NCBI GenBank assembly: GCA_017480745.1
Contig: JAFUSA010000017.1
Coordinates: forward strand, 16,174 to 80,173
Reading direction: 5' to 3'
DNA length: 64,000 bases
From: Alphaproteobacteria bacterium
Lineage (GTDB): Bacteria; Pseudomonadota; Alphaproteobacteria; RF32; CAG-239
Shown: positions 18,759-63,838 of the stretch, one piece after another
Layout: the number at the start of each line of letters is the position of its first letter
Numbering within the stretch: the first letter of the stretch is position 1
Notes under the pieces: model-generated
What the model saw: the letters and a program-made list of their open reading frames with translations, nothing else
The model's database searches: none
Told to the model about the DNA's origin: nothing
Position numbers and translations under genes: made by a program

Positions 18759-19202
18759 TTATTCAATCAGCAAAATAAGACTGTCTTTAACTCCTACTAC
18801 CTTTGCGGTATCACCTTTTTTCAAAGTTTTTTCCGTATAGGCAACCCAATAAGAATCGCCAACTTTAACTTTTGTCTGATTATCGACAACATCTTCGGCC
18901 AAAGTTACCAAACGACCAACATTTTGCTCTGCCGAATTGTTAAGATTTTGATATTCTTTCGGCGTTTTTGTTTTTTCAAATATATAGCGATACACATATA
19001 ATCCGATAACCGCAAATATACCCGAAAATATGGCAAACCATATCAGTTGAGTAGTAACTTCCATAGGAATAAGCCATGTTATCAAACTCATAACAAAGCC
19101 GGCAAAACCAAACCAAATCAAGTAAACTCCCGGCACAACCAATTCTAAAACCGACAGCACTAACCCGATAATCAGCCACATTATAACCGGTGAATCAAAC
19201 AT
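18759..19202 (-). CDS. NfeD-family membrane protein
   Basis: 147 aa. Three to four TM helices plus a C-terminal OB-like domain. Immediately downstream of the SPFH gene. Confidence 0.75.
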   Translation of the reverse strand: MFDSPVIMWLIIGLVLSVLELVVPGVYLIWFGFAGFVMSLITWLIPMEVTTQLIWFAIFSGIFAVIGLYVYRYIFEKTKTPKEYQNLNNSAEQNVGRLVTLAEDVVDNQTKVKVGDSYWVAYTEKTLKKGDTAKVVGVKDSLILLIE

Positions 19203-30440: not shown

Positions 30441-31211
30441 ATGCCCAAGAATATGACCTTAAAACAAGAAAAAAAGCTTCATCTGCGTGCACAAAAAATA
30501 TTTAAAGAAGCGAATCGCTTTCTTGTTACAAACTTTCGCTTTGTATCGTGTGTATTTATTATTAACATGATATATATGCTGGTATTTAAAGCTATAATCG
30601 GTGGAATTTCAAACCCTTTAAGTATTTTATGGATTATTTCCTATTATATTTTCTGGTGTTCGTTTTATCGATATTACTATCACCTCAAACCCTATATATT
30701 AAGCAAAACAATTTTCGGCAGTCTGAATCCGTCTGTTAAAGCGCTGGTTATTTTATTTTCTCTGACAATTACTATTGCCCTGATTCCGATGATTCCGTTT
30801 TTCTTAGGATTTAATGACCTATATATAAATATCTACGAAAACTATTTACAAAAACTAAGCCAAATATCAGACAATAGTGCCGAACCGGCAGATATAGCCA
30901 CGATTTTAACTATTTACGGACTTATGGCACTTGCTTCACCAACATTGATTTGTAAGCCTTATTTGGCGTGGATATCTTCTTTACGAGGGATGAATTCATC
31001 GTTTAAAAAAGTTGCGAATCGAGCCGGTGGAAATTATTGGCAATTTGTTATTATCTCTGCCGTGTTGCTATATGTTGAAGCATTTGGCAACCAATTAGAT
31101 AAAATAATGCAATGCCAAAACTGGCTTCAATACACTATCAGCACCACTGTGTTTGTATATACCAATATTGTTTTTGCTAAAATTTATGATTTCTTTTATA
31201 TAAAGCACTAA
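30441..31211 (+). CDS. Polytopic membrane protein, unknown function
   Basis: 256 aa, about six hydrophobic helices. Confidence 0.45.
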   Translation: MPKNMTLKQEKKLHLRAQKIFKEANRFLVTNFRFVSCVFIINMIYMLVFKAIIGGISNPLSILWIISYYIFWCSFYRYYYHLKPYILSKTIFGSLNPSVKALVILFSLTITIALIPMIPFFLGFNDLYINIYENYLQKLSQISDNSAEPADIATILTIYGLMALASPTLICKPYLAWISSLRGMNSSFKKVANRAGGNYWQFVIISAVLLYVEAFGNQLDKIMQCQNWLQYTISTTVFVYTNIVFAKIYDFFYIKH

Positions 31212-32182
31212 TGCCTCTGATGCCACATCAAACACAACAGGCGACATTTGCTTTTAAACGATAAATGATTGAAATTTACTATATTTTCCGCGGTTAACTT
31301 TTTATATTCTTTTTTGAAGTATTTTTCTAATTCGTCGCGATTCTCTGCACTTTTAGATATTTTGGAAAGCACCATTTTTAACGAAACACTGACACGTTTG
31401 TTTTGCACCAACTTCCATTGCTCTGCATCGCCTTTCTGTTGAAAATAATTATATACATGATATATCCCGACCATATAGTCGTGTATTTTTTTCACAGAAA
31501 ACGGGCTACGGGTAATAGACGGACATCCGGCATTATACATATACAATTTTTCATTAATAACAGCCATAGTTTTTAACGATGAAACCAAACAGGTTATAAA
31601 AGGCCAATCTTCAAACGATATTCCTTCAATAAAACGAGCCGATTTAATACAGTCGGCACGAAAAAGCTTATTCCATGCCACAGAAGAAACAATTCTGTAT
31701 TTATACAAATCTCGCAAAGGGTTTGCACTTAATTTATATTTAGTATCTTGTACCGGCAAAAAATTGTCGGAAATTACATAATTTTCATCATAAAATTTAT
31801 TAAAATCAGATGAAATAATTAAAGGAGCGTTTGTTTTGAGCGCCACATTATAAAAAATATCAAGCGTTTGCGGATGCAAGAAATCATCAGAATCCAAAAA
31901 GAAAATATACTCCCCGTTAGCCATATCAAGACCGACATTACGTGCTGCTGATAGTCCTCTGTTAGGTTGTGAAACGATTCGTAAACGTTTATCCTTGGCA
32001 GCATATTCTTTTAAAATTGTTGGACAACCGTCTTCCGAACCGTCATTTATACAAATAATCTCTATGTTGGTAAAAGTTTGCATAAGCACACTATCCAAGC
32101 AACGCGGTAAAAATTTTTCCACGTTATAAACCGGAATAACCACAGAAATATCACACTTTGGATTGCTTACCATTTTTCTCAA
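31208..32182 (-). CDS. Family-2 glycosyltransferase
   Basis: ISVVIPVYNVEKFLPRCLDSVLMQTF...INDGSEDG...FLDSDD. Confidence 0.85.
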   Translation of the reverse strand: MRKMVSNPKCDISVVIPVYNVEKFLPRCLDSVLMQTFTNIEIICINDGSEDGCPTILKEYAAKDKRLRIVSQPNRGLSAARNVGLDMANGEYIFFLDSDDFLHPQTLDIFYNVALKTNAPLIISSDFNKFYDENYVISDNFLPVQDTKYKLSANPLRDLYKYRIVSSVAWNKLFRADCIKSARFIEGISFEDWPFITCLVSSLKTMAVINEKLYMYNAGCPSITRSPFSVKKIHDYMVGIYHVYNYFQQKGDAEQWKLVQNKRVSVSLKMVLSKISKSAENRDELEKYFKKEYKKLTAENIVNFNHLSFKSKCRLLCLMWHQRH

Positions 32183-32283
32183 AACTCAATACAACTTTTT
32201 ATTACATATAATAGTCTTTTGTATAAAAGTCAAACAAAATATCTAAACAAAAAGAACTTTTTTCTCTGCCCCAAAAAAGAATA

Positions 32284-33081
32284 TCACTTCCAATAGTTCC
32301 TAATCCATGTGGTTGGTAAAACATGCTTATATATTTTTTTTAATCCATGGGGAGCTTTTATATTTTCCTCCTTACACCAAATTCCATGCAACGCTTCCGG
32401 AATGCCGGTAACTCCATGAAAAACAATCATTTTTAGTCCGACAACTTTCGGTATTTTAGGAACAATAAAATATCTTAACAACGGATGCGGCATACAATGA
32501 AAGCGAAAACTTTTGAACCAATTATCCGGCCAAAATTTTAAATTGCCATACTTTTCTATAACTTTGGCAGATAAATACTCTTGCGAAGCAGTTCCGTATT
32601 TTTGCCACACTTCATCAGAATGTTTTTCAAAATATTCTTTCACAAAACCCAATGTCCCCACAACAAAAGAATAACAACTTGCCTGTCCTACTGTATTTTT
32701 TCGCCTTCCGTGCCGATGTCTCCAATCATTGATAATGTAAAAATTTTCATTTTGCGGATACCGGAATAATTCATCTAAATTATCAACAATTAAAGAATCT
32801 AAATCAAAGAAAAATACTCTTTTTCCGCCTAAATTTCCTAAATTATTATCACACAAAGCTGCTTCTTTCAAATATCCGCTATATTGATATTTTTCATTCA
32901 CGGCAAATTCCGGCAAAGGTTTAACAATAATTTCTTGTTCCAAATTTATACAATCATCTGTAAAGCAATAAAAATCAATATCATACGAAGTATTTCGTTT
33001 AATGGCACGAAACAATTTATTTACATCATCTGCGTTGTAACATGTTCCCCATTTTATACAAATAACATTAATCGCCGTCAT
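32284..33081 (-). CDS. Putative nucleotide-sugar transferase (DxD)
   Basis: 265 aa. VICIKWGTCYNADDVNKL... and FFFDLDSLIV (DxD-like). 1-nt overlap with the upstream GT2. Confidence 0.4.
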   Translation of the reverse strand: MTAINVICIKWGTCYNADDVNKLFRAIKRNTSYDIDFYCFTDDCINLEQEIIVKPLPEFAVNEKYQYSGYLKEAALCDNNLGNLGGKRVFFFDLDSLIVDNLDELFRYPQNENFYIINDWRHRHGRRKNTVGQASCYSFVVGTLGFVKEYFEKHSDEVWQKYGTASQEYLSAKVIEKYGNLKFWPDNWFKSFRFHCMPHPLLRYFIVPKIPKVVGLKMIVFHGVTGIPEALHGIWCKEENIKAPHGLKKIYKHVLPTTWIRNYWK

Positions 33082-34040
33082 TACTTTATTCCTTTCAATA
33101 ACATTTCAGGACAACCTTTTTTTAAACTTAAAATAACAATACCCATTTTCCATAAACGATATTTTGTTTTAAGATTTAAAGCAGATATTTCTATAATATT
33201 TTCAGCGCAAAGCTTGAAAATTTCACTATGTAAATATCTGACTAAATCTTTATCTGATTTACTTTTATAAACTTTGTTAACCAACATGTTTATTGCTCGT
33301 AAAATTCGGCAATTTGCCAATTCAAGCAAATCTGTATGTTTGAAAAAGTTATATACATAGCGCACACCGATAATGTAACTTTTTATTTTGTGTAAGTTAA
33401 ACGGACTGCGTGTTGTAGAAATGTGGGAAGTATCGTAAATATATAATGGTATGGAGATTGAAGCATAATTTTTAATTGTTCCAAACAACGTTGTAATAAA
33501 CGGCCAATCTTCAAAATATATTCCTTCAATAAAACTTTTTTCCTTGATAACCGAAGCTTTGTATAATTTATTACAGGCGGAAGACGCTATTTTCGGGTGT
33601 TTTACAAGTTCCGAAAGAGGAAAATCATATAACTTCCAAGCAAACTTATATACATGATAAATATTTTCTTTTTCCGCCGGTAAAATTTCATCAGAAACAA
33701 CAACATCAGCCTGTGATAAATTTGCTGTTTTTATAAATATTTCCAAAGCTTCTCTCGGTAAATAATCATCAGAATCTAAAAAAAATACATACTCGCCTCT
33801 TGCTTTTTCAAGACCTCTGTTACGAGCTACTGATTGTCCGGCATTTGCTTGATTAATCAATTTAAATTTATTGTTTTTTGTGGTATATTCCTCTAAAATA
33901 TGCAGGCTTCCATCTGTGGAACCATCGTTTATTAAAATAACTTCATAATCGCTGAACGTCTGTTGCAATAATGAATCTAAACAGCGTTCCAGCAGTGTTG
34001 CCGTATTATAAACAGGAATAATTACAGATATCTTAGGCAT
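33081..34040 (-). CDS. Family-2 glycosyltransferase
   Basis: ISVIIPVYNTATLLERCLDSLLQQTF...INDGSTDG...FLDSDD. Paralogue of 31208-32182. Confidence 0.85.
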   Translation of the reverse strand: MPKISVIIPVYNTATLLERCLDSLLQQTFSDYEVILINDGSTDGSLHILEEYTTKNNKFKLINQANAGQSVARNRGLEKARGEYVFFLDSDDYLPREALEIFIKTANLSQADVVVSDEILPAEKENIYHVYKFAWKLYDFPLSELVKHPKIASSACNKLYKASVIKEKSFIEGIYFEDWPFITTLFGTIKNYASISIPLYIYDTSHISTTRSPFNLHKIKSYIIGVRYVYNFFKHTDLLELANCRILRAINMLVNKVYKSKSDKDLVRYLHSEIFKLCAENIIEISALNLKTKYRLWKMGIVILSLKKGCPEMLLKGIK

Positions 34041-34063
34041 TTTATCTCCTTAATTGGTTGCAT

Positions 34064-34257
34064 AAAAAACCGCCAAACGGCGGCCGGGAGTTGAAAAATC
34101 ATGCAATACTATGTGATCCTGTTAGTCTTTAGGTTGACACCCCGTACATCCACCAACAGCTCCCAACCAAAGTCGGAAACACATTTATAAACCTTATAAC
34201 GATGCAGTCAGCACCGAGTATTGCAAGAGCTTTTCAAGGCCCTGAACCGAAGTTCTG
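34064..34257 (-). promoter_or_regulatory. Structured 5' leader, copy D (riboswitch-like, ends in terminator) upstream of the glycosyltransferase operon
   Basis: Same helices and conserved loops as the copies at 37031, 44307 and 58386. Terminator GCCGCCGTTTGGCGGT + T6 lies about 20 nt before the RBS. TATAAT-type -10 at about 34263-34275. Confidence 0.7.
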
Positions 34258-34364
34258 TATTTATTATATTATAATCTCAGCAAAAGTAAAGCTCTTTTTA
34301 CACAAGTCACAACAAAAGCACCGCCGATAAAAACCGGCGGTACATATTGATTTTGTGTCAAAAA

Positions 34365-36135: not shown

Positions 36136-36996
36136 TTAATCATCGTATGTTGTTAAGCCGTCCGACCACAAAGAATAATCGACATCAAACATAAAAGAGA
36201 TGTATTTACCTTCTGCGTCTCCTTCTGACTCAAACAGATCTGCACAGAATTTAACGGCATTATCTACCGATAGCGGAACTTTGGCAGTTATTTCTCCGGA
36301 TTTTGCCACATCGGTATAAACAAACACGACTCCGGCCGATGTCCAATCTTGGCTCAACAGTTCAATACATGCTTCTTCATTATCTCCAATAGTATAATTG
36401 ATGTAAAACGCCTGACGATCACCATCTTTGGCTTTATCTGCTGCATATAAACCAACCCCACCACCGAAAGGATTGGTAATAGACATAATCTTACCATCAG
36501 TTACGGTAATCATTTCATCAGGGAATATTTTGGCTTTTTTAACTATCGGACAGCCATTGTTATCATGGGTTGGTTTTCCGTCTGCATCAACGGAAGCTCC
36601 ATCGCAACCGGAGGCGATGCAAGTGCCATCACTATTACTATCACAACGCGCCCCGATATAGTTCTTCTGTGGTCCCCAAAAGGCACGAATATTACCGGCA
36701 ATGAGAGTTATTTGCTCAATGGTTTTGTTGATGCGATATTTAGTCATCGCCTTGCTGTATCCGGCGATTCCTCCAACAGAGAGAACGCCAATAATGGCTA
36801 ACACGCCCAACATCTCAATCATTGACCGTCCGGACTGCGTGGCAAAACCACACTTATAGTCATGCCTCGATTCCGCAGGAATCGTCAAGGCATCTTCCGC
36901 TTGATTAAAATTAATTTGAAGATCCCTTGATGCATTCGCCTTTGCAAGGCTATGCGAGGGATGACTCTTTATATTTTTAATTTCTAAGTTTCTCAT
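36136..36996 (-). CDS. Type IV pilin-like protein (prepilin-type N-terminal domain) with unusually long 56-aa leader
   Basis: ...QSG|RSMIEMLGVLAIIGVLSVGGIAGYSKAM: Gly-1, Glu+5, and a hydrophobic helix. Cys-rich variable C-domain. Paralogues at 43627, 58617 and 63839. Confidence 0.7.
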   Translation of the reverse strand: MRNLEIKNIKSHPSHSLAKANASRDLQINFNQAEDALTIPAESRHDYKCGFATQSGRSMIEMLGVLAIIGVLSVGGIAGYSKAMTKYRINKTIEQITLIAGNIRAFWGPQKNYIGARCDSNSDGTCIASGCDGASVDADGKPTHDNNGCPIVKKAKIFPDEMITVTDGKIMSITNPFGGGVGLYAADKAKDGDRQAFYINYTIGDNEEACIELLSQDWTSAGVVFVYTDVAKSGEITAKVPLSVDNAVKFCADLFESEGDAEGKYISFMFDVDYSLWSDGLTTYDD

Positions 36997-37030: not shown

Positions 37031-37230
37031 AAAAAATTGACCGTCAAACGGCGGTCGGGAGAGTTGATAAATCATAGAGTTTGATATGATCTCCCTATTC
37101 TTTAGAATAAAATTCCTGAACATCCAATAGAGACTCCCCGCCCAAAATCGGAGATAAATCACACATTTTCATAACGATGCACCGCACCGCAAACTCTAAG
37201 AGCTTATCAAGGCTCCGAACCGAAGTTCTT
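37031..37230 (-). promoter_or_regulatory. Structured 5' leader, copy A, with terminator
   Basis: Promoter TTGACT (37258-37263) / TATCAT (37236-37241). UUCG hairpin at 37217-37228. Terminator GACCGCCGTTTGACGGTC + T-run at 37031-37056. Confidence 0.7.
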
Positions 37231-37438
37231 AGTCTATGATATCATAAATTCGGCAAAAGTCAAATAAAAAATATAAACTTTACCAAAAAAGCAGGCAATA
37301 CCGGATAATATAACCGACAATAAGCCTCTCAACTATCAGAAAGCCAACTTTTTGTATTTTTATCTTTACTTTCTTTTTAAAGGAGAGTATAATAGCGTGT
37401 AAATTAAAATTATTATAAACCTCAAAAAAATACGCATT

Positions 37439-40918: not shown

Positions 40919-42349
40919 TCAATCTAAATATTTGCTGTTGTCAATATTCCAAATATTCTCCTTATCCTGCAAGTTATGTGCAATATTTTCCGCCACAGCC
41001 ATACCGCTTAAAACAGCGTGATCCATATTGATATATTTATGCATTCCGTTGCGTCCGATCAAATAGAGATTTTTCACACTATCGGTATAATTTTTTATTT
41101 GTTCAAATTGCAAATAACTGCCAAAATACGCCGGATAAGCTTTTTCCAGCTTAAATGAGTATGCTTCAATCACATCCTTGTCATCAATTAGGCTGATTTT
41201 TTCCGCTTCTGCAATAGCCATAGCCGTAAATTTTTCATCTGACATTTGCCACAAATTATCGTTATCACCGCAAAAATATTCCAAAGCCAACAGAACTTTT
41301 GTTCTATCTGCCAGCAAATCAGCTGACCAATTATTATAAACTTGTATGCGTCCAATTTTTACATCGCTTTCTTGAATATAAAGCCAAGTATCCGGCAAAA
41401 TATGCGTTTTAAGCATTTTATTCAGTAAAACAACAGCACTGCGAAAATTGCGATATTGCAGACCTGCGGCAATTTGTCTGATATTTTGCGGAACATTTGG
41501 TAACATAGTAATTAAGTCCTTAACCGGCAGGGAAGATATAAAATAATCCCCTTCAATAGTTTGCTCAGAACCATCTGCCATACGAATAACCGCAGAAATA
41601 ATTTTATCTCCGGAAGTATTGAGGCGCACCACTTCGGCGTTAAAAGTAAACTCTCCGCCTTGTTTAAGCACTTTATCGGCAACTTTTTGCCAAAGCTGCG
41701 CCGGTCCGTATTTAGGATATAAGAAAGTATCTTTTATTTTTGGCCGAAAAGCTTTTAAGACAGAAAGCACAATCTCGCGTAAATGAATCCCGCGAATACG
41801 TTCCCTGCCCCATTCGGCAGAAATCTCGCGACAAGAAATTCCCCACAGTTTTTCGGTATAATCTTTGAAAAACGTACGATAAAGTACTTTACCAAAAGTG
41901 TTAATTAAAAAATCTTCGGCAGATTTTTCCGGCTTTATCGGATGCAATTTTGCACGCAAATAAGAAGCGATGATATTTAGCATACGCTTTAACCCTAAGC
42001 CGTGAAAAGTACGCAGATTCAACGCTACCGGATAATCAAAAAAACGTCGCAGATAATATATGCGCGAAAGACGATTTTGCGTAATAAAAGTATCTGTTGT
42101 ATTCGGAGCATCAAGTGGCAAAAATTGCAACCACCAATCGTGCACTTTGCTAAATTTAGTAAAAAAGCGATGTCCGCCGATATCCGCCAAATTATCACCG
42201 GCGCGAGCGGTTAAACACAAACCGCCGACAAACGGATTTTTCTCTACCACCAGCGGTTGCACCTCACTCTGCTGCAAAAGCTCATACGCCGCAGTCAATC
42301 CGGCGGGACCGGCACCCAAAATAACCGCCCTAACCTTGCGTTTGTGCAT
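40919..42349 (-). CDS. FAD/NAD(P)-binding oxidoreductase (amine-oxidase / UDP-galactopyranose-mutase-like fold)
   Basis: 476 aa. N-terminal dinucleotide fold VRAVILGAGPAGLTAAYEL. Overlaps the upstream membrane-protein gene by 20 nt. Confidence 0.65.
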   Translation of the reverse strand: MHKRKVRAVILGAGPAGLTAAYELLQQSEVQPLVVEKNPFVGGLCLTARAGDNLADIGGHRFFTKFSKVHDWWLQFLPLDAPNTTDTFITQNRLSRIYYLRRFFDYPVALNLRTFHGLGLKRMLNIIASYLRAKLHPIKPEKSAEDFLINTFGKVLYRTFFKDYTEKLWGISCREISAEWGRERIRGIHLREIVLSVLKAFRPKIKDTFLYPKYGPAQLWQKVADKVLKQGGEFTFNAEVVRLNTSGDKIISAVIRMADGSEQTIEGDYFISSLPVKDLITMLPNVPQNIRQIAAGLQYRNFRSAVVLLNKMLKTHILPDTWLYIQESDVKIGRIQVYNNWSADLLADRTKVLLALEYFCGDNDNLWQMSDEKFTAMAIAEAEKISLIDDKDVIEAYSFKLEKAYPAYFGSYLQFEQIKNYTDSVKNLYLIGRNGMHKYINMDHAVLSGMAVAENIAHNLQDKENIWNIDNSKYLD

Positions 42350-43640
42350 TATCTGCCTCCTTTGACTTAATATACCAAAAGTTCAGCATAACAATCAGCG
42401 GAAAAAAGGTTGCCACCCATAAGCGATAGGTATAACTTGCATGTTGCAACGGATGTCCACCGACAATAAAACACCAAAACAAAGTAGAAGTCGCTATTGC
42501 CACAAACGGCAACAACGTAACGCTGTTATTTTTTGCATAGAGCCACGTTTTTTTCGCGCGCCAAACCAAAGGCGCTAAGGAAAGAATAAAACTCCAAGTT
42601 GCCGCGGCAACCGTTTCCGGTATGGCAAACAACACCCTCCATGTTGCCACAATAGCAAAACCGCGCGTATATTCGGTAATAACTTCTTTGCCTTTAAGAA
42701 CATAGCGCATTTGTGAAGTAGAACGATTTAAGAGCGCATTAAAAACATCGGCAACCACATTTTGCTCAGTCAACAGCGACGCCAAAATCCATTTGAGCAC
42801 CCACATACCAACATAAGCTCCGCCAAAACATAAGGTTAAAACCAATAGTCGTTTAAACATTGACTTAAACTCAGTTTCCGGTTCTAAATAAAAAAGCAAT
42901 GTCAATGAAGTTGCCAACGGCACAATCGGATAAGTGAGAAAATCAAAAAAGCAAGTGCAAATCCCTATCATGGCAAAAAATATCGGGTAGCCGAGGCGCT
43001 CCTTTATCCATTCACGGCAGGTCAGCATTAAAATCATAGATACTGCGCTGACATAATAAAGAATGGAATAAGTCATATTCATTGCCATGGCTTCGGGGTT
43101 AAAAATAAAGTAACTGAGCGCCCAACCAAGCATCAGCCCTTTGGCTTTATTTTGCCACATTAGCCACAAAATCAGCCCGAACAGCCACACTTGCAGATAT
43201 AAATTAATTTGCCGGATGTGCTGATAATCAGTGAAATAAAGCAGCGGACGCAAAAAAATCTGATACCCGTGCCAATAGCGCGGATAGTATATTTTATAAT
43301 ACTCCAAATCATCGCGGCAGATAGTTTCAAGCGGAAAAATATCTATCCAATCCGGTTGTTGTTTATAAACCGTATAGAGCGGATTATTGAAAAAAGTTTG
43401 CCAACCGGCTTCGTCTTTTACTCCGTTTGCCACCAACATCATTGTCGCATCGGTATAGTTATCAAGAATGCGACCGGCAACCGACGGATGATAATCTTCC
43501 GCCATATATAACGAACAGGCATTTTTGCTGTGCGCAACACCCTTAGTCGGCGGCACATATTGCACCGCCATACCTAAGAAAACAAAACAACATATCATAC
43601 CTAATATGTATGATAAACGTATCATTTTATTTAATGACAA
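42330..43640 (-). CDS. Polytopic membrane protein, GT-C-like glycosyltransferase suspected
   Basis: 436 aa, at least 10 hydrophobic helices, extracytoplasmic loop with YPRYWHGYQ. Overlaps the pilin-like gene by 14 nt. Confidence 0.4.
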   Translation of the reverse strand: MSLNKMIRLSYILGMICCFVFLGMAVQYVPPTKGVAHSKNACSLYMAEDYHPSVAGRILDNYTDATMMLVANGVKDEAGWQTFFNNPLYTVYKQQPDWIDIFPLETICRDDLEYYKIYYPRYWHGYQIFLRPLLYFTDYQHIRQINLYLQVWLFGLILWLMWQNKAKGLMLGWALSYFIFNPEAMAMNMTYSILYYVSAVSMILMLTCREWIKERLGYPIFFAMIGICTCFFDFLTYPIVPLATSLTLLFYLEPETEFKSMFKRLLVLTLCFGGAYVGMWVLKWILASLLTEQNVVADVFNALLNRSTSQMRYVLKGKEVITEYTRGFAIVATWRVLFAIPETVAAATWSFILSLAPLVWRAKKTWLYAKNNSVTLLPFVAIATSTLFWCFIVGGHPLQHASYTYRLWVATFFPLIVMLNFWYIKSKEADNAQTQG

Positions 43641-44259
43641 AAACTATACCATTATGATCAATAGAACAAAGAGTAATAGCATCCTCTACGCCACCTGAAT
43701 ATGCCGAACCGTTAATTTCCATACTTTCCGGATTTAAGGCGCTCCAATCCTGAGAAGCTATATCAATGCAAGCCTCCATAGGAATATCAAATACACCTAA
43801 AGATAGAGTTTTATCACCATCCATGGAACTAAAACAAATTCCTCCACCAAAAGCATTTATAACATTTGTACTGTCAGTCTGATTTTCCAATCCGTGACTC
43901 CCATCTACCCTTGCGACTATAAAAGTCTGTTTTGGTGAAACTAATGTTTCATCTGGCACCAGATGTGCTTTTCGCACTACATCACTTACGCTATCCATTC
44001 CCGATTCATATGCAAGTCCTCCGCATCCCATCCATATTCCTGCATACCTCCTATCAGCCGGTTGGCTGGCAGTGAAAGAACGCATATTGCCGGCAATTAA
44101 GGTAATTTGTTCAATTGTTTTGTTAATGCGATACTTCATCATCGCTTTACTGTATCCGGCGATTCCGCCAACAGAAAGCACGCCGATAATTGCCAAAACG
44201 CCTAACATTTCGATCATTGAGCGTCCGTTTTGATGATTTTTTATTTCAAAATTTTTCAT
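43627..44259 (-). CDS. Type IV pilin-like protein (short 12-aa leader)
   Basis: MKNFEIKNHQNG|RSMIEMLGVLAIIGVLSVGGIAGYSKAMMKYRINKTIEQITLIAGN. Confidence 0.75.
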   Translation of the reverse strand: MKNFEIKNHQNGRSMIEMLGVLAIIGVLSVGGIAGYSKAMMKYRINKTIEQITLIAGNMRSFTASQPADRRYAGIWMGCGGLAYESGMDSVSDVVRKAHLVPDETLVSPKQTFIVARVDGSHGLENQTDSTNVINAFGGGICFSSMDGDKTLSLGVFDIPMEACIDIASQDWSALNPESMEINGSAYSGGVEDAITLCSIDHNGIVFVIK

Positions 44260-44306: not shown

Positions 44307-44499
44307 AAAAAGACCACCAAATGGTGGTCGGAGAGGTAGAAAATCACACGGTTTAAGCTGATTTCTGTAACCTTTAAGCTAAATGCTCTGTACATCCGCT
44401 ACAGACTCCCCAACCCAGTCGGAGATATTATTAAACACCATAACGATGCAAAGCACCGTAAACCGTAAGAGCTTTCTACAGCTCCGAACCGAAGTTCTG
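44307..44499 (-). promoter_or_regulatory. Structured 5' leader, copy C, with terminator
   Basis: Promoter TTGACA (44527-44532) / TAACAT (44505-44510). UUCG hairpin at 44486-44497. Terminator GACCACCATTTGGTGGTC + T5. Confidence 0.7.
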
Positions 44500-44551
44500 A
44501 ATCTATGTTAGCATAATTTTTGCAAATGTCAAACAATTTTTGCAAACAATT

Positions 44552-45921: not shown

Positions 45922-48621
45922 TTACATTCCGCCACGTTCGGTTCCCACGCGTACAGCAACACTGCGAACTTCTTTTTCTGTTTTAGCAACGGCGGAATCC
46001 CCGTCATCTTTTGCCAAACGAGATGCGTTATAATCCGGCACAACTTGTGGCTGTCCACCTGTTGGAGTATTCGGCTGATTATTTCCGGCATTGCCTCCGT
46101 TAGTGTTCGGCTGGTTGTTATTTGGTTGTTGAACCGGTTGATTATTGCGATTCGGTTGCGGATGTGTACGCATATAATCCGGCAGATAATTATTAACAAA
46201 GTCACCGATTTCCAACGGAACATTAAATGACTTTATCATATCTATTTCATCCAGCCCCAAAGACTTCAAGTCTTCGTTAATACCGTCACACATATTGCGT
46301 GCATTATTATATATATCTTTAACAATAATCTGATCGGCTCGCTTGGCGCCTATATTAGGGTTAAAACGAACATCTATCAATTCACGATATACATCATCCT
46401 TGGCTATTTGCTGTTGGCGCGGATATAAAATATCAAACACTTGCTCCAATTGTTGAGTGCTCATCTTATCTACCGAACCGCCTAAACCGGCATTTTGCAA
46501 AGCTTGTTTTTCAGCCATACTTAACTTATCCGAAGACAATAACGGACGACCTGCAACATCATGAAAATAGTTGGATTTCGGTGCCACATCATTATACGCA
46601 TCAAACAAAACACGCAAAGTGCGAAACGCGGCAATTTTATCCACTGCGCCGGTATCCGGATTAGAAGTGCGCAATATTGTTTTGATTTTAGGTTTTAAAG
46701 TTTCGGCATAGCCATTAGTAAAGGAACGATAGTGATAAGAGTTTATCAAACCATCTATATACGACTGCTCGGAATCATCCAAACGCTTATGCTTCTGACG
46801 ATTATTCTTTTGCGCCTGAGTGCCCAAACGAAACTTAAATAATGCATATTTTTCATCCGAAAGTTTCGGTGGTTTGCCGGCTTCAAGCATACCAGTCATT
46901 TTAGAACGATCCAAACCAATACCAACCGGAATCATTCCTTTTTCAGCCAGAGCTTTGCGCCACAAACCTTTTTCAGCATCAGGCATACCCATAGGGAAGT
47001 TAACATGCGTTATTCCCAAACTTTCAAGTTGCCCGATAATTCCGTTAATATACGCTTCATCAAGCTTTTTGTTGTTAGGTGTGCGATACCCTATTTGAAT
47101 GGTTCCGTTTTTTTCACGAACAAACAATTTGAAAGAATAAAGATACGGCGATATTTTGCCCTTATCATCAACTTTGCCCTCTTTACGGCGCTGTTCATCT
47201 GTAACTTCACCATCATAAACAGTATAAACCGTCCATCCGGTGCCAAACCAACCAGAATGCTTTTTGAACAATGTTTTACCTAAAACCTTATTCAAACCTT
47301 TTGAAGTTCCAATCCATTCATCAAATTTTTCCTCTGCATCAGCACGCCTTACACGGCGGCGGCGATGTGGCGCCGGTGCATTCTGCCCTTGTGGCGCCGG
47401 CGGAGTATTTGGAGTTTGGTTATTACCATTACCGGCAGGCTGTTGCGCAGGCTGATTATTATTGTTATTGTTGCGACGATGAAACCATGAAAAAATAGAA
47501 TTTTGTGCAACATCTTTATCATCTATATCAATAACAGCCGTTTCTTCCTCACTAAATCCAACCACACCGATTTCTCCGGCAGTAGGTAAATCCGGTGTAA
47601 TATCGTTTTTATCAGGTTTTGACGAACTGCTGTTCTCGGCATTTTTTTTATCGTTTGGATTTTGTGCATCGGCTTTTTCTTCTGTATTTAACTCAGTTTT
47701 TTCGGAAACCGTATTTTCAGTTTGTTGTTCATCATGTGTTTTGCCGCCGTTGGCAATAATTTCCTGATACTCTTTATCTAATTCTTTTTGATGCTCTTCC
47801 CTTATTTGTGTTTCGCCTAAATCTTTTTGCTCTCCTTGAGCTTTCTGCTCGGCTTTTAATTCTTCAATAAGTGCTGATATTCGTTCTTTGGCTGCAATTA
47901 TTTCCTCATCTGTTTCACTCTCACCGGCACGAACTTCCATTTTATCCGTTTCAAATCCGCTTTTTTCGCAAAAATCCAAAACTTCGCCAAGTTGCTCCTT
48001 ATCCAAATCTGCTGCCACTTGTTCGGAAAAAGTTATTTGCATTTTAAGCTTTTGCTCTTCTTCATTTGGAACATCATATTCCATAATTCCAAGACTAAAC
48101 TTAAACGGCTGCTCCTCCCCATTTTCTGCCGGAACTTCAACTTGCAATGCCAACTGTTTCAAACGTCCTTCCGGATCGGCATTCATCTTAAAATATTGTT
48201 CTTGCGTTAAAATATCTCCGTTGTCAATAATATCTTCTTCCACAAAGGAAACATTTTCCGCATATCCTTTTTTGATATGCTCTTCACGAATGCGATATAA
48301 CTGCGAAAATGTAGGGCCGTATTCTTGCAAATAAGAATATTCCTGTTTCAGCACATTGAACTCTTTACTCAGTTTATGGTTTTCAGAATCCACCTTTTCT
48401 CTGTTTTGTCGTATTTCTTCCGGCGCAAAAATTTTGTTTTCACTCGTTGCGTTAGCATCATTATATTCTGCCAAAGACAACTCATCAGATGCCTCCATAT
48501 TTTCTCGCAAAAGCTCATTTAGTGAAACCAACTGCTGTGCAAACTTGCGTTTTAAGGACTGTTCGCTGTATTCTTCCGGAAGTTCGGAAATTAAGGTGTT
48601 TTCAATATAAGTTCTTGCCAT
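45922..48621 (-). CDS. Large hypothetical protein with acidic coiled-coil N-half and N/Q/P-rich linkers
   Basis: 899 aa, no signal peptide or TM. NNNNNNQPAQQPAGNGNNQTPNTPPAPQGQNAPAP and a C-terminal NQPVQQPNNNQPNTNGGNAGNNQPNTPTGGQPQ. Confidence 0.5.
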   Translation of the reverse strand: MARTYIENTLISELPEEYSEQSLKRKFAQQLVSLNELLRENMEASDELSLAEYNDANATSENKIFAPEEIRQNREKVDSENHKLSKEFNVLKQEYSYLQEYGPTFSQLYRIREEHIKKGYAENVSFVEEDIIDNGDILTQEQYFKMNADPEGRLKQLALQVEVPAENGEEQPFKFSLGIMEYDVPNEEEQKLKMQITFSEQVAADLDKEQLGEVLDFCEKSGFETDKMEVRAGESETDEEIIAAKERISALIEELKAEQKAQGEQKDLGETQIREEHQKELDKEYQEIIANGGKTHDEQQTENTVSEKTELNTEEKADAQNPNDKKNAENSSSSKPDKNDITPDLPTAGEIGVVGFSEEETAVIDIDDKDVAQNSIFSWFHRRNNNNNNQPAQQPAGNGNNQTPNTPPAPQGQNAPAPHRRRRVRRADAEEKFDEWIGTSKGLNKVLGKTLFKKHSGWFGTGWTVYTVYDGEVTDEQRRKEGKVDDKGKISPYLYSFKLFVREKNGTIQIGYRTPNNKKLDEAYINGIIGQLESLGITHVNFPMGMPDAEKGLWRKALAEKGMIPVGIGLDRSKMTGMLEAGKPPKLSDEKYALFKFRLGTQAQKNNRQKHKRLDDSEQSYIDGLINSYHYRSFTNGYAETLKPKIKTILRTSNPDTGAVDKIAAFRTLRVLFDAYNDVAPKSNYFHDVAGRPLLSSDKLSMAEKQALQNAGLGGSVDKMSTQQLEQVFDILYPRQQQIAKDDVYRELIDVRFNPNIGAKRADQIIVKDIYNNARNMCDGINEDLKSLGLDEIDMIKSFNVPLEIGDFVNNYLPDYMRTHPQPNRNNQPVQQPNNNQPNTNGGNAGNNQPNTPTGGQPQVVPDYNASRLAKDDGDSAVAKTEKEVRSVAVRVGTERGGM

Positions 48622-50096: not shown

Positions 50097-50579
50097 TTAT
50101 ATTTTAAAATAAAATTCTATTCCATCTGGTGCATCATATTTAGTGAAATCAATGCAATATTTTACCGCATCGTCTATGTTTATAGGAAATTTGGTAAAAC
50201 CATGTGCGTCATTGTTTTCATCGTATAAATAAATTGTTTCTATATTTGCAACAGACCAATCTTGAGTTATTAATTCAATACAATAATCTTCCGTAATTTC
50301 ATTCAACTGTATAAAATATCTTCTGTCATAATCATATATAATATCAATATGTTGTGCGCTTATAGGAACATATAGCTGACCTTCATTCCACATATCATCA
50401 GGAGCCAATTTTGCTTTTTTTAAAATAGTATATAACAATGTGTCATTACTAACCATCGTCTTCTGATGACCGAAAAAAGCATGCATATTTTGTGTTAATA
50501 AAGTAATCTGCTCAAATGTTCTATTTAATTGTTGGTTAATATAGTTATGATTGCAATTTTTTGAGTAGGCTATTGACAA
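50097..50579 (-). pseudogene. N-terminally truncated pilin-like paralogue (lacks leader and hydrophobic helix)
   Basis: Aligns to the paralogues from ...YSK-----NRTFEQITLLTQNMHAFFG onward, and shows EDYCIELITQDWS and PINIDDAVKYC. Only a TTG start is available. No upstream structured leader. Confidence 0.55.
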
Positions 50580-50943: not shown

Positions 50944-53217
50944 TTACTGTTTTTGCCCTAACAATTCGGCTAAATCAATTTCTTCATATTCTTGTTTGGG
51001 CCGATCAGTCGAGGAGTTCTCATTATTTTCGGGCGTATCACGCAATATTTCCAAGTCAGCCATTTCCGCGGCAAACTGTTCGTTAAAAATACTGTCTAAA
51101 TTTACTTGAGCATTTTCTGAACTATCACTCGTATTTGTATTTAGCATTGAAGTTGATTCGGAATAGTCATTTAAGTTTATTTTCGGTAGGTTATCACCGT
51201 TTTCCGGAGCTTCATTTGAATAATGATTTTCGCCGAAAGGAGTATCAGCTGCATATTGATTGAGATCAATCGGTGCTTCTGTCGGTACTAAATCATTATC
51301 TGCTGTTCCGAAAGGATCATCAGATTGATATTGTGCCGGATTTACAGGTGCTGGCATATCCGGTAAATCAGCCGCTTTGGAATATATACTCTGAGAGCCG
51401 AATGGTTGTTCGGAAGCATAAGCAGACATATCTATTGCCGGCTCCAAATAAGGCATATGATCTGCCAAAGGATTATCAGCCTTAACACCGAAAGGGTTAT
51501 CTGTTGTATATGCCGGACGATCAGCAACAACTTCATCTGGTTCGTTGTTTATAGAGCTTATATCCTCGTTTATAGGAGTATATTCCGGAATATTATTTTC
51601 CGAATATGAACTTTGCGCCGGATCTGCCAAAATCGGTGTATATTCCGGCTCTTCTTCGTGATAAAGATTAACATCTGTTTCGGCAGATTGGGAATATTGT
51701 TCTTCGGATTCATCAATGTATGGAGTATCTATATAGTAGCCACCATTTTGAATTGGAGCTTCATATTCCGTATTTGGTTCAACTTCCGGTTCATTAATCT
51801 GTTCCGGCTCTGGTTCAAACTCAGACTCCGATTTAGGTTCAAGAGCAGGCGCAGGCTCCGGCTCCGGCTCAGGTTCCGATTCATAAACAAGCGCCACTTC
51901 CGGTTCATTAATCTGTTCCGGCTCTGGTTCAGACTCAGATTCCAATTTAGGTTCAAGCGCAGGCTCCGGCTCAGATTCCGATTCATAAACAAGCGCCACT
52001 TCCGGTTCGTTAATCTGCTCTATCTCAGGTTCCGGTTCTGGTTCCGGCGCATCAATAATCTCCGGTTCAGTAGTCTCTGCCACTACAAAATTATTTTGCT
52101 CTTTAGGATGTTTATGCTTTTTGTTTTTCTTACGACGCTTAGGATTTTCAATTTCCGAATTTTCTGTTTCTTCTGCCTGATTTATGTTTAAATCATCATC
52201 AGTAAAATCTTCTTCATTTTCAATATCTGCATTTTCTTCAGCAACATGTTCATCATAAATATCTTCGTTTATGTCATGTTCTTCGATAATACTCTGTTCT
52301 TCAATAACCGTATGTTCTTGTTCAGGATCGGAAACATTTATTTCGTCATTTTCTCCACTGTCTTCTCCTAAAATAAGACTCAATACTTTGTTCGTTTTTT
52401 CTACGGAAGTCTTCACTTGTTCGGCAAGTTTGGCATAGTCATCTTTAAGCGTAATAAATTCTTTGTGTAAATTAAGCATAGAGCCGAATGTGCGCTTATT
52501 CAAATTTTGAACATCACTCCGCAAAATATTCAATTTTTGTTCAAAAATATCGCTATTGGAATCATCTTTTTCTTTTGTCAGCACTTTTTGGCTGATTTCT
52601 TTTTGTTCGTTTAGCAATGTGGTCAAACCAGACATTAACGCAGACAAAGCATCCACATTGGCCAAAGACTTATTGAGTTGTTCATTCTTATTCAACGCAG
52701 CCGATTGTAGCTCATCAAAGCGATTATTGAGATTTTCCAGCCCTAAGTTAAGAGTCTTACCGGTATTATCACTAAATTCTCCTAATTGTGAGGTTATAGC
52801 GTTCAAAAGTTGTTCGCCGTCCGGAGAATTATTTTGCAGAGAAGCTTTAAGACTCTCTATGTTTTCATGTATATCGTTATTATCACGGAGACTGACAGTT
52901 TTTTCAATATGCAAAAGCCGGTCCTTTATTTCGGCAAGTAGAGTGCTGTTGTCTGTATTATTATTTTGCGACTTTTGAAAAGTTGGTATTACATTAGTAT
53001 TTTTGGCATCCATACCGATAAAGCCGAGAGCTAATACAACCGATGAAACCACAAACAAAAACATCGAAATATTTGCAGCCGAGGCAAAGCTCTGCGGGTC
53101 TTGTTGCTTCATATAACTAAAATACAAAAAAGCGCACAACAGGCAAGCAACCAAAAAAATACTCAGGAATTTAACCAATGATATAACGAACTTCACAGTG
53201 AATCTCCTTTTTTGCAT
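50944..53217 (-). CDS. Membrane-anchored coiled-coil protein with hyper-acidic repeat region
   Basis: 757 aa. Two N-terminal TM helices, a coiled coil, E/P/D-rich repeats, and four x-PFG motifs in the C-terminal third. Confidence 0.5.
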   Translation of the reverse strand: MQKRRFTVKFVISLVKFLSIFLVACLLCAFLYFSYMKQQDPQSFASAANISMFLFVVSSVVLALGFIGMDAKNTNVIPTFQKSQNNNTDNSTLLAEIKDRLLHIEKTVSLRDNNDIHENIESLKASLQNNSPDGEQLLNAITSQLGEFSDNTGKTLNLGLENLNNRFDELQSAALNKNEQLNKSLANVDALSALMSGLTTLLNEQKEISQKVLTKEKDDSNSDIFEQKLNILRSDVQNLNKRTFGSMLNLHKEFITLKDDYAKLAEQVKTSVEKTNKVLSLILGEDSGENDEINVSDPEQEHTVIEEQSIIEEHDINEDIYDEHVAEENADIENEEDFTDDDLNINQAEETENSEIENPKRRKKNKKHKHPKEQNNFVVAETTEPEIIDAPEPEPEPEIEQINEPEVALVYESESEPEPALEPKLESESEPEPEQINEPEVALVYESEPEPEPEPAPALEPKSESEFEPEPEQINEPEVEPNTEYEAPIQNGGYYIDTPYIDESEEQYSQSAETDVNLYHEEEPEYTPILADPAQSSYSENNIPEYTPINEDISSINNEPDEVVADRPAYTTDNPFGVKADNPLADHMPYLEPAIDMSAYASEQPFGSQSIYSKAADLPDMPAPVNPAQYQSDDPFGTADNDLVPTEAPIDLNQYAADTPFGENHYSNEAPENGDNLPKINLNDYSESTSMLNTNTSDSSENAQVNLDSIFNEQFAAEMADLEILRDTPENNENSSTDRPKQEYEEIDLAELLGQKQ
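51782..52020. repeat. Coding tandem repeat, 114 + 102 + 23 nt
   Basis: ACTTCCGGTTCATTAATCTGTTCCGGCTCTGGTTCA... recurs at 51782, 51896 and 51998. It encodes (minus strand) EQINEPEVALVYESE-EPEPE units. Confidence 0.85.
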
Positions 53218-53789: not shown

Positions 53790-54620
53790 CTACTTCATCA
53801 TTGTTTGATATAATATTCGCACACGTTGGAAGAAATTTAAATGCGGCTTAGGGGAGATGATTTCCCATCCGCGTTTTTTCATAATATCAAATTGACATTG
53901 GCTGATATTTTTTATTAGGCGGAAAGATAAAGTTTCATTACGATTCATCTTATTCAATAACCTCTCGCTTTTGTTATAACAACTTTCAGCCAAAAGTGCA
54001 AATTTTTCCCGTGCCGAAGCAATATTCTTATCTCCTAACATATTAAGCGGAGTATTTTTGGCAATTTGCGTTTCTTGCAATATTTCTTGCGGAATATAAA
54101 AACGGTTGTGTTTGGCGTCATCTTTCAAATCACGCAACATGTAGGTAATTCCAACTGCTTGCCCCAAATTTTTTGCCATTTCCATATTTGCCTTTGGGTG
54201 ATCATTATCTATAATCATCAAAGCCAACGCAAACGGAACAATAATAGAACCGTTTATATATTGCTCAAACACATCAATCTTAGGGGCTTGTAACGGATTT
54301 TCGGCATTTAAAAAAGCACTATTCAATATTTCACTCCACAGCTCTTTGGGCAAGTTGAAACGCATGCAATTTTTGTATATTTTGCGCCCGATATTTGTTT
54401 GCGGAACACTCTTATCATAAATATTATCAAGTTCTTCCCGCCAAGCTTTCAATAGCTCAGTTTTTTCGTTGACAGGTATATCGGAATAAAGCACATCGCC
54501 GATATGACGACTGAACGCAAAAAGTGTAAAAACTGCCTCGCGTTTATATTTTGGCAGACTGCGCATACACCAAAACAACAAAGGTTGATCTTTTTTTATG
54601 ATATTGCCGATAGAAAGCAT
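53790..54620 (-). CDS. Squalene/phytoene-synthase-family protein
   Basis: 276 aa. FAFSRHIGDVLYSD (divergent first Asp motif), YMLRDLKDDAKHNRFYIPQE (second motif). Confidence 0.55.
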   Translation of the reverse strand: MLSIGNIIKKDQPLLFWCMRSLPKYKREAVFTLFAFSRHIGDVLYSDIPVNEKTELLKAWREELDNIYDKSVPQTNIGRKIYKNCMRFNLPKELWSEILNSAFLNAENPLQAPKIDVFEQYINGSIIVPFALALMIIDNDHPKANMEMAKNLGQAVGITYMLRDLKDDAKHNRFYIPQEILQETQIAKNTPLNMLGDKNIASAREKFALLAESCYNKSERLLNKMNRNETLSFRLIKNISQCQFDIMKKRGWEIISPKPHLNFFQRVRILYQTMMK

Positions 54621-56682: not shown

Positions 56683-56807
56683 AAACACCTCATGCCGGCA
56701 AAATAATATTATTTTATCGATTTGTAAACCATCAACCGCTCAGTTATTAAATATTTTTTAAGTTAAATTGATTAAAATAATGGAAAATGTTAATTTTGAG
56801 AATAAGA

Positions 56808-58286: not shown

Positions 58287-58385
58287 AAAATATCTATCCT
58301 ATAACGTTGTTATTGAACAGTATGGATTTTTTACCTATACAGTAAAAATAGTTTGACTTTTATTTTTTTTATGATATAGTAAACT

Positions 58386-58582
58386 CAGGACTTCGGTTCA
58401 GAGCTTTCATCGGCTCATGTACAACTCGGTGCACTGCATCGTCACAGAAGTATTGAATATCTCCGACTTGGTCGGGGAGTCCGTGATGGATGTTCAAGGT
58501 GTTTACCTAAAGATTACGGAAGTCATATAGTTGTACATGATTGATGAACTCTCCCGACCGCTGTTTAGTGGTCAATTTTTTT
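58386..58582 (+). promoter_or_regulatory. Structured 5' leader, copy B, with terminator
   Basis: Promoter TTGACT 58353-58358 / TATAGT 58375-58380. Helices are listed in the first finding. Terminator GACCGC-UGUUUA-GUGGUC at 58556-58573 + U7. Confidence 0.75.
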
Positions 58583-58616
58583 AATGTGTTAACACTTAAT
58601 TTTAGGAGATGAAATT

Positions 58617-63508: not shown

Positions 63509-63631
63509 AATCACAACAAATATATAATATCCGCCGGAGCTTTTTATAACTCCGGCGAGAAGTTTGTGCTTATTAATAATTTTTGAAAAAAAACAGTTTG
63601 ACTTTGGATTTTTTTGTGATATAGTAAAATC

Positions 63632-63801
63632 AAGATGAGGTAACTTGTCTGAGGCCTGCAAGCCTCTTTAAGTCCGTCTTAATAGACGTAAAATTTTCCA
63701 GCGTGGCTGGATGGTTGCGGAATAAATTTTATTATGAATACGCAACGCTATTGACTTAAATAGTTTGCAGCTTCCAGCCGCCTCAAAAGGGCGGTTATTT
63801 T
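63632..63801 (+). promoter_or_regulatory. Different multi-hairpin 5' leader with terminator upstream of the fifth pilin-like gene
   Basis: Promoter TTGACT 63598-63603 / TATAGT 63620-63625. Hairpins GAGGC..GCCUC, CGUCU-UAAU-AGACG, CCAGC-GUG-GCUGG, UUGCG..CGCAA. Terminator CCGCC-UCAAAAG-GGCGG + U-rich at 63778-63801. Confidence 0.5.
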
Positions 63802-63838
63802 ATGTAGTATCAACAATTCATATGAAAGGAAGTTTACT

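Follow-up and report, generated by a model that had tools for sequence, protein, structure and literature searches.

In terminator-type OFF riboswitches of the SAM-I (S-box) kind, one strand of an aptamer helix can alternatively pair with the region of the terminator 5′ arm. The pilA-tfpW-tfpX genes of the Pseudomonas aeruginosa group IV pilins form a pilin-linked glycosylation locus, and we know of no RNA leader at the Pseudomonas pilin glycosylation loci. A c-di-GMP-II riboswitch, which belongs to the cyclic di-GMP (c-di-GMP) riboswitches, precedes pilA1 in Clostridioides difficile, and GEMM-I elements are found before pilus and polysaccharide genes (review PMC11477304). Here, we analysed 64,000 nucleotides (nt) of DNA from an uncultured low-GC gut alphaproteobacterium (the window, in which all positions are counted). 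Judged from its sequence, the segment 34295-34041 on the minus strand is a self-contained unit of predicted promoter, cis-acting 5′ leader of ~190 nt (leader D), terminator and ribosome-binding site (RBS), located directly 5′ of a gene for a family 2 glycosyltransferase (GT2). The leader appears to be part of a previously undescribed, multi-copy family of riboswitch-like attenuators with two sub-types, which mainly heads type IVb pilin-like genes. With a probability of roughly 0.55, leader D is the unit that decides between stopping at its own terminator and reading through into the GT2 gene and an adjoining gene for a GT-A-fold protein; it would do so as an effector-driven OFF switch and place this glycosyltransferase (GT) unit under joint control with the pilins.

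Like the SAM-I/S-box elements, the leader has a multi-helix junction, covarying stems and invariant junction nucleotides. A helix strand competes with the terminator 5′ arm, so that folding of the domain permits termination, and multiple copies define a regulon. Unlike these elements, it has no Rfam match and occurs in two sub-types with different loops in helix P4. Its helix P1 is very long (~20 base pairs, bp), which renders a ligand-dependent closure less obvious, and a second alternative hairpin, Alt1, makes use of the P1 internal loop. The targets are surface-filament subunits and glycosyltransferases rather than a biosynthetic pathway.

With the c-di-GMP riboswitches, the leader shares the position of a terminator-bearing RNA before type IV pilin genes. 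In these systems, pili and exopolysaccharide transferases fall within one second-messenger regulon, which is comparable to the pilin and GT targets described here. In contrast to them, the leader comprises about 170 nt with a four-way junction, resides in an alphaproteobacterial host and showed no similarity to GEMM-I or GEMM-II in cmscan even at permissive thresholds; binding of c-di-GMP would be purely hypothetical here. The c-di-GMP riboswitches before pilin genes are the nearest biological precedent, with no structural similarity. A further parallel concerns the trp-type attenuators with their 1:2, 2:3 and 3:4 pairings, as the leader also has four segments (P3 5′ strand, P3 3′ strand, switch and terminator 3′ arm) whose exclusive pairings decide on termination. 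It differs from them in that it has no conserved leader peptide and in that P4 and the P1 3′ strand, together about 75 nt of structured RNA, separate segment 2 from segment 3. T-box or ANTAR signatures, typical of the respective leaders, are absent. By analogy, the leader would function like a terminator-type riboswitch or attenuator, and it lies outside all curated families.

Leader D and its two alternative folds

The outer-membrane beta-barrel protein gene upstream of leader D has its own terminator at 34343-34318, so that the leader opens a separate transcription unit. Copy D is complete, with promoter, both alternative pairings and terminator all present. Its elements are given below; R1 is a covariance model built from eight leader copies.

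34263..34290, minus strand: sigma-70-like promoter (−35 box TTTACT at 34290-34285, 16-nt spacer, −10 box TATAAT at 34268-34263)
34065..34257, minus strand: leader RNA D, type 1 (R1 match 34257-34065, 176 bits, E 1e-46)
34255-34244, minus strand: P0, a UUCG hairpin
34242-34239, minus strand: S1, the 5′ strand of P1a
34237-34231, minus strand: P1 outer 5′ strand
34230-34227, minus strand: S2 (GCUC)
34225-34217, minus strand: P1 inner 5′ strand
34216-34200, minus strand: P2
34179-34160, minus strand: P3
34159-34119, minus strand: P4 with the GGAUGU/CUAAAG loops
34110-34102, minus strand: P1 inner 3′ strand
34101-34097, minus strand: UGAUU
34097-34091, minus strand: P1 outer 3′ strand
34082..34090, minus strand: switch segment CUCCCGGCC, which in the terminator fold pairs with S1 and is part of the terminator base
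34061..34085, minus strand: intrinsic terminator, consisting of the hairpin GGCCGCCGUUUGGCGGUU at 34085-34068 (7-bp stem with 5 G-C pairs, GUUU loop) followed by UUUUUU
34051-34046, minus strand: Shine-Dalgarno (SD) sequence AAGGAG of the GT2 gene, whose ATG is at 34040

TTGACT/TTGACA −35 boxes and −10 boxes equivalent to those of D lie within the conserved block of every copy. The distance from the U-run to the start codon of the downstream open reading frame (ORF) is just 25-45 nt in the leader copies, and the downstream genes therefore depend on read-through. A strong promoter and a terminator in each copy would also be expected of free-standing small RNA genes of ~200 nt that act in trans and neighbour pilin and GT genes only incidentally. 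Terminated leaders would be abundant and would carry SD-like and anti-SD-like strands. We regard this possibility as very remote, as every copy points to an ORF at the short distance given above, leaving no space for a second promoter, and a conserved competing pairing flanks the terminator.

Run on a plain MAFFT alignment, RNAalifold predicted 59 pairs. They form P0, the terminator and a long P1 with interruptions that closes a four-way junction of P2, P3 and P4/P4a. The proportion of paired cells was 98.3%; column shuffles gave 83%, and sliding of the partners 37-48%. Compensatory changes on both sides were found for 27 of the 59 pairs, versus 5-8 in the slid controls. Single-sequence minimum free energy (MFE) folds gave the same architecture for all seven leaders (7/7), including type-2 copies and the leaders L031 and L012 from two other species. 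Invariant unpaired nucleotides clustered in J4/1 (UCA) and in the internal loops of P4 (GGAUGU...CA / AAAG) and P1 (GCUC / UGAUU). These results place a covarying structured domain inside the 5′ untranslated region (UTR). When the whole window was searched with Rfam 15 at the gathering threshold, no match to a leader was obtained, and only a transfer RNA (tRNA) passed. At E ≤ 10, the sole model overlapping leader D was an unrelated long non-coding RNA with 16.9 bits (gathering score 34), and around a further copy, leader E, there was no match at E ≤ 1. The searches placed the leader in none of the Rfam 15 families, including c-di-GMP-I/II, T-box, glmS, ydaO, raiA, cobalamin and lysine.

The same sequences bear on a ribosome-dependent mechanism, in which an SD-like GGGGAG in the P3 3′ strand and the AUG within GGAUGU would start a mini-ORF whose translation chooses the fold. 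The SD-like motif, the AUG and a six-codon ORF ending in CUAAAG are indeed present in 8/12 type-1 leaders with the GGAUGU AUG. In the remaining 4/12, however, loop-length changes of 1-2 nt break the frame, so that a conserved short ORF with an RBS over segment 1, as in a leader-peptide attenuator, was not recovered. The peptide sequence is not conserved, the AUG is absent from type 2 and from the L012 copy, and the substitutions are stem-compensatory instead of codon-periodic. Leader-peptide attenuation is thus highly improbable.

Two mutually exclusive folds were derived for the leader. In the terminator fold, the P0 tetraloop hairpin is followed by the interrupted P1, which closes the four-way junction of P2, P3 and P4, and then by P1a and the terminator. 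The anti-terminator fold consists of Alt1, in which S1 pairs with the GCUC internal-loop strand, and Alt2, in which the purine-rich P3 3′ strand pairs with the pyrimidine-rich segment at the terminator base. In leader D, Alt2 comprises 9 bp between the switch CUCCCGGCC and the P3 3′ strand GGUUGGGAG (34168-34160), with a duplex free energy (ΔG) of −17.5 kcal/mol.

In Alt1, S1 (GRGSY), situated just 3′ of P0, pairs locally with S2 (GCUC/RCCUC), the P1 internal-loop strand. This hairpin was predicted within the nascent 46 nt in 25/29 leaders tested and covaries between copies (GGAGC/GCUCU, GGGU/ACCC, GAGGC/GCCUC and GGGGU/ACCUC). P1a is formed by the same S1 bases with the 5′ end of the switch, and the fifth base of S1 changes in step with its partners in Alt1 and P1a (C:G:G or U:A:A). 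The Alt2 partner strands (P3 3′ strand / switch) of different leaders were GGUCGGGGAG / CUCUCCCGACC, GGCUGGAAG / CUUCCGGCC, GGUCUGG / CCAGACC and GGUCGGGGGA / UUCCCCGACC, and the pairing tracks the subtype changes CCGAC, CCGGC, CCAGC and CCAGAC. With a duplex ΔG of −13 to −21 kcal/mol, Alt2 was stronger than P3 (−9 to −14 kcal/mol) in 22/22 leaders. The mean ΔG was −15.7 kcal/mol for cognate strand pairs and −12.5 kcal/mol for non-cognate ones. Formation of Alt2 strips 3-4 bp from the terminator. Sequence analysis hence predicts that the leader contains an expression platform whose terminator and anti-terminator states exclude each other.

The SD sequence also covaries with the switch, with GGAGA/UCUCC in type 1, GGAAGU/ACUUCC in type 2, GGAGAG/CUCUCC in L031 and GGGGA/UCCCC in L012. 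The SD regions compared were 58603-58610, 63826-63833 and 34046-34051 of the window, ~9995 of L031 and ~300 of L012. In MFE folds of the full UTR, the switch was paired with the SD sequence in copy A of the window and in L012. Transcripts that are read through may accordingly be subject to an additional, translational layer of control.

Leader copies, sub-types and the glycosyltransferase unit

A blastn search combined with a core pattern revealed three more copies besides D, with ~70% identity, at 58.4 kb on the plus strand and at 37.1 kb and 44.4 kb on the minus strand. In 100 shuffled versions of the window, the core pattern was never matched. R1 recovered copies A-D and found the divergent copy E, whereas no further copies appeared in the window when the filters were switched off. 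In total, the window holds five homologous leaders, of which A-D belong to type 1 and E to type 2. The four copies other than D are as follows.

58386-58576, plus strand: leader A, type 1 (58343..58576 with promoter), 5′ of the pilin-like gene 58617-59354
37036-37230, minus strand: leader B, type 1 (37036..37263 with promoter), 5′ of the pilin-like gene 36136-36996
44309-44499, minus strand: leader C, type 1 (44309..44541 with promoter), 5′ of the pilin-like gene 43627-44259
63637-63799, plus strand: leader E, type 2 (element 63598..63806), with its own TTGACT promoter, 5′ of the pilin-like gene starting at 63839

Copy E (region 63598-64000) was not among the leader copies named in the original prediction, which had been made from the DNA letters and a list of ORFs. 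Type 2 comprises copy E and eight further sequences from the fetched loci. Homology of the two types follows from R1 scores of 33-52 bits for type-2 copies. The order P0-S1-P1-P2-P3-P4-P1′-switch-terminator is the same as in type 1, while P0 (AGAUGAG-GUAA-CUUGUCU), the loops GAAUAR, AAUAYGC and AUAGUU and the switch CUUCCGGCC are different. In type 1, GGAUGU/CUAAAG/UCA/UGAUU are retained in at least 12 of the 13 aligned members. For type 2, RNAalifold paired the 5′ arm of the terminator with the region of P0; we judged this less likely than P0 plus terminator, based on the analogy with type 1 and on the single-sequence folds. A short form at 18900-19027 (plus strand) of locus L028 retains P0, S1/S2, P1 and the terminator, but its P2-P4 core is replaced, and P3 and P4 are missing. 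It precedes genes for proteins of 276 and 176 amino acids (aa) without family matches. At 6809-6884 on the minus strand of the same locus, the stop codon of ftsK is directly followed by part of a type-2 leader, namely its 3′ half from P4 to the terminator (nhmmer, 53 bits), which looks like a leader remnant used as ftsK terminator.

To find relatives elsewhere, 185,579 species representatives were scanned with a strict motif pattern. Only one of the 24 loci returned was genuine, namely L012 from the alphaproteobacterial metagenome-assembled genome SIG50; the other 23 were chance matches, all in high-GC genomes. Scans of JGI metagenome contigs and of viral sequences gave one chance match each and no true relative. 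Locus L030 was discarded as an independent species because it represents a strain of the window species (94-97% nucleotide identity). L028 and L035 probably derive from the window species as well, given a shared 344-kb contig, and so probably do L037 and L038, for which the assignment is based on shared sample sources alone. The genuinely different species sampled are L031/L032 and L012, two besides the window species. For the window itself, ChpT-like and TrmFO genes, along with the names carried by homologues, indicate an uncultured low-GC alphaproteobacterium of gut metagenomes.

The genes downstream of leader D are all located on the minus strand.

33081..34040, minus strand: GT2 glycosyltransferase gene, 319 aa, the first gene after leader D (Pfam, E 3.5e-37)
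32284..33081, minus strand: GT-A-fold (DxD) glycosyltransferase-like gene, 265 aa, overlapping the GT2 stop codon through TAATG
31208..32182, minus strand: second GT2 gene (Pfam), after a 101-nt gap

The 265-aa protein had no sequence match in Pfam, NCBIfam or the PDB, a profile search against the PDB included, and none of its 588 homologues is named. AlphaFold returned a model with a mean predicted local distance difference test (pLDDT) score of 92 on the basis of a 27-sequence alignment; a single-sequence model (pLDDT 33) was not used. Foldseek matched the former model to the GT-A retaining enzymes LARGE1, the UGGT catalytic domain, blood-group GTA/GTB and alpha-1,3-GalT, with E about 1e-8, probability 1.0 and template modelling (TM) scores of 0.5-0.6. 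Residues D93 and D95 of the DxD motif (FFFDLDS) are invariant, and the homologues always reside amid glycosyltransferase genes. The model thus identifies the protein as a probable GT-A-fold glycosyltransferase, in agreement with the DxD transferase-like annotation proposed previously. The second GT2 gene, which the original prediction named after this pair, was likewise confirmed as such, but probably lies outside the leader D unit. The gap 32183-32283 (minus strand) contains a promoter-like TTGACT-N17-TATATG sequence and an A/U-rich hairpin, and the gene is missing from the corresponding unit of L031/L032. For these two reasons, we treat only the GT2 and GT-A genes as leader-controlled; the second GT2 gene is probably a separate unit with its own promoter.

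The arrangement leader-GT2-GT-A recurs in L031/L032 (leader 93 bits, E 6e-24; partner protein 266 aa). The GT2 proteins of this species and the window are 54% identical and the GT-A partners 73%. Copies A, B and C share 62-68% identity with D, and the homology of D stops at the terminator. A recent duplication of copy D can be dismissed on the basis of this identity and of the same arrangement in another species, where the leader-GT2 link persists with a GT2 protein of only 54% identity. The expectation that D is no recently transposed duplicate was thereby borne out. It was further predicted that the leader is not simply a paralogue-specific 5′ UTR copied along with duplicated genes. This applies to D, but not to the pilin copies, in which leader, post-terminator spacer, RBS and N-terminal codons were duplicated together with the gene; in copies A and B, post-terminator spacer and RBS are even identical. 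Duplication therefore accounts for most copies.

Such co-duplication would also be expected if the leader were a non-sensing structured 5′ UTR, i.e., a constitutive partial terminator or an element for mRNA stability or processing, which spread with the pilin family and which the GT unit acquired accidentally. It would fit this explanation that two of four orthologous GT2+GT-A pairs, L033 and L050, have no leader (L050 instead has a tRNA and a short UTR upstream). Nor was a leader present at the more distant GT2 homologues L034 and L042-L049, which belong to different operons. However, the three-way covariation preserves the two alternative helices across every subtype and three species, which is hard to explain without selection for switching. 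Moreover, the second species retains the leader-GT2 linkage although its GT2 protein has diverged by 46%, and strains with unalignable pilin C-terminal domains share copy C at 99% identity. We therefore consider a non-sensing UTR unlikely.

Altogether, about 24 distinct leaders were counted in the window and the fetched loci, and about 20 of them precede pilin-like genes. Every pilin-like gene seen in these sequences has a type-1 or type-2 leader. Two leaders precede the GT2+GT-A pair (window D and L031/L032), and the L012 leader precedes the gene for a secreted cysteine-rich protein. Neither this protein nor the 276-aa and 176-aa targets of the short form have an evident link to glycans. The original prediction had placed glycan synthesis and pilin-like genes in one RNA-controlled regulon, with a gene set of filament subunits plus sugar transferases. 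That the leader family heads a GT unit as well as pilin-like genes is confirmed by the GT2 and GT-A-fold genes behind D. Both gene classes are present, but the pilin-like genes predominate by far, and the notion of a joint glycan and pilin regulon is partly supported. We conclude that the GT unit appears to be a genuine, lineage-restricted and recruited member of a pilin-centred regulon. Its leader in two species is the first hint of non-pilin functions in this regulon.

Proposed effector-driven switching and possible factor-dependent anti-termination

We propose that a putative effector, most likely a small molecule, binds to the conserved junction and internal-loop nucleotides GGAUGU, CUAAAG, UCA, UGAUU and GCUC. 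Binding would lock P3 and P1 and favour termination, corresponding to an OFF switch with SAM-I-like logic. Without effector, Alt1, which forms early in kinetic terms, and Alt2, which is stronger, would lead to read-through. The simplest rationale for the position of the GT2/GT-A unit under the leader would be that its products act together with the pilin-like proteins, plausibly by glycosylating them, and so share their control; the operon behind copy C (operon C) hints at the same.

Several observations weigh against this proposal. Nested folding with Alt2 enforced was 8-17 kcal/mol worse, and 3.5-14 kcal/mol worse before the terminator 3′ arm is made. The Alt2 state is costly in nested folding because Alt2 excludes P1. 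Therefore, the anti-terminator is not the thermodynamic ground state and, unassisted, needs kinetic trapping or a pseudoknotted form. By our rough estimate, a pseudoknotted state with the inner P1, Alt1 in place of the outer P1/P1a and Alt2 in place of P3 would be about iso-energetic with the terminator fold as the switch leaves the polymerase. The different P4 loops of types 1 and 2 and the short form without P3 and P4 are atypical of one metabolite pocket and equally compatible with a protein factor or with more than one effector. Furthermore, the majority of the compared leader copies are paralogues of a single species, with only two other species sampled. Except for L012, the comparison loci were obtained mostly via pilin or GT protein anchors, which biases the counts of target genes. 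As for the previously suggested signal of envelope or glycan status, for example a nucleotide sugar or a second messenger, a single operon is thin evidence.

The main rival, promotion of Alt1/Alt2 by a factor, is favoured by the energetic bias and by the lack of a core conserved across the sub-types. In this ON mechanism, the terminator fold would be the default until a trans-acting RNA-binding protein or RNA either makes Alt1/Alt2 more stable or sequesters the P3 5′ strand, thereby permitting read-through, as in ANTAR, LicT and T-box systems. Activation by a factor is energetically natural for a terminator fold that is more stable by 8-17 kcal/mol. While the inner domain varies across type 1, type 2 and the short form, P0, S1/S2, the UGAUU/UAGUU loop and the switch are kept, which would suit recognition of a shared platform, and dozens of copies per genome before paralogous surface proteins resemble dedicated anti-terminator regulons. 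On the other hand, no candidate RNA-binding regulator was found beside any copy, inspection revealed no ANTAR-type dual hexaloops, and a T-box match was not obtained. The covarying four-way junction with its invariant loop nucleotides also exceeds the needs of a simple protein site. Factor-dependent anti-termination is hence a serious alternative, but a considerably less probable one than the effector-driven OFF switch.

If the effector-driven OFF switch is true, a new, well-defined riboswitch-like attenuator family would control surface proteins whose family has greatly expanded in a gut lineage that metagenomes alone have revealed. The pilin-like surface proteins have >7,900 detectable homologues, with many paralogues per genome. 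The leader provides a concrete RNA for ligand screening, and the model of P3, switch and terminator is directly testable by mutation. The family also offers a handle on the regulation and diversification of pilus-like appendages and their glycosylation. More speculatively, types 1 and 2 might be two related, yet distinct new riboswitch classes that sense different signals (e.g., a second messenger and an envelope or glycan precursor), gate termination and possibly access to the RBS, and choose among dozens of hypervariable type IVb pilin-like paralogues and glycosylation enzymes. We hold this idea to be tentative; if true, it would amount to an RNA-based surface-variation programme in uncultured gut Alphaproteobacteria.

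Pilin-like proteins, operon C and neighbouring genes

The pilin-like proteins behind copies A, B, C and E have PilS/Bundlin-like domains and the prepilin-type N-terminus G|RSMIEMLGVLAIIGVLSVGG, the latter present in all five window proteins. The proteins of A and B matched Pfam PilS and/or Bundlin above the cutoff. For the C protein, the N_methyl match in Pfam was below the cutoff, and TIGR02532 scored 16.6 bits, just above the cutoff of 16.3. These features identify the main target genes as members of a probable type IV (IVb-like) pilin family. The gene behind copy E (MRNLKIKNNESGRSMIEML...) is the fifth pilin-like gene in the window and runs past the window end. The A protein (58617-59354, plus strand) and the B protein (36136-36996, minus strand) differ from those of C and E by an insertion of ~38 aa in the prepilin leader peptide (...SNFNQAEDALTIP.ESRHDYKCG..TQSG|RSMIEML).

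Operon C contains two genes downstream of its pilin-like gene.

42330-43640, minus strand: 436-aa protein without family match
40919-42349, minus strand: PRK07208-type flavin adenine dinucleotide (FAD) oxidoreductase

The previously proposed composition of operon C held for the pilin-like gene and the FAD oxidoreductase, but the 436-aa protein, which had been called GT-C-like, gave no Pfam or NCBIfam match even at E ≤ 10. As in pilA-tfpW-tfpX, the pilin gene is directly followed by a gene for a large protein, of the polytopic-membrane kind according to the original prediction, and by sugar-pathway enzymes, which fits a co-expression of transferase and pilin. The two loci differ in that the 436-aa protein belongs to no detectable family.

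In the C-terminal half of the C pilin (43789-44039), the DNA could not be aligned with L030 10221-10462; the proteins are 56% identical overall, and the flanks are 94-97% identical. As described above, leader C is nearly invariant between these strains. The pilin domain behind this conserved leader therefore appears to be hypervariable or exchanged. A truncated pilin-like ORF of 160 aa at 50097-50579 (minus strand) has neither prepilin signal, hydrophobic helix, promoter nor leader and may represent a pseudogene or silent cassette.

The regions 45922-48621 and 50944-53217 (both minus strand) encode large low-complexity proteins of 899 and 757 aa, respectively, with acidic and EPEPEP-type repeats, which are conserved in L030. 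Two adjacent ORFs at 53790-55349 (minus strand) lie beside a TrmFO-like gene (55336-56688). The first of them corresponds to a gene of the squalene/phytoene-synthase family in L030, a hint that this gut alphaproteobacterium makes hopanoids or squalene.

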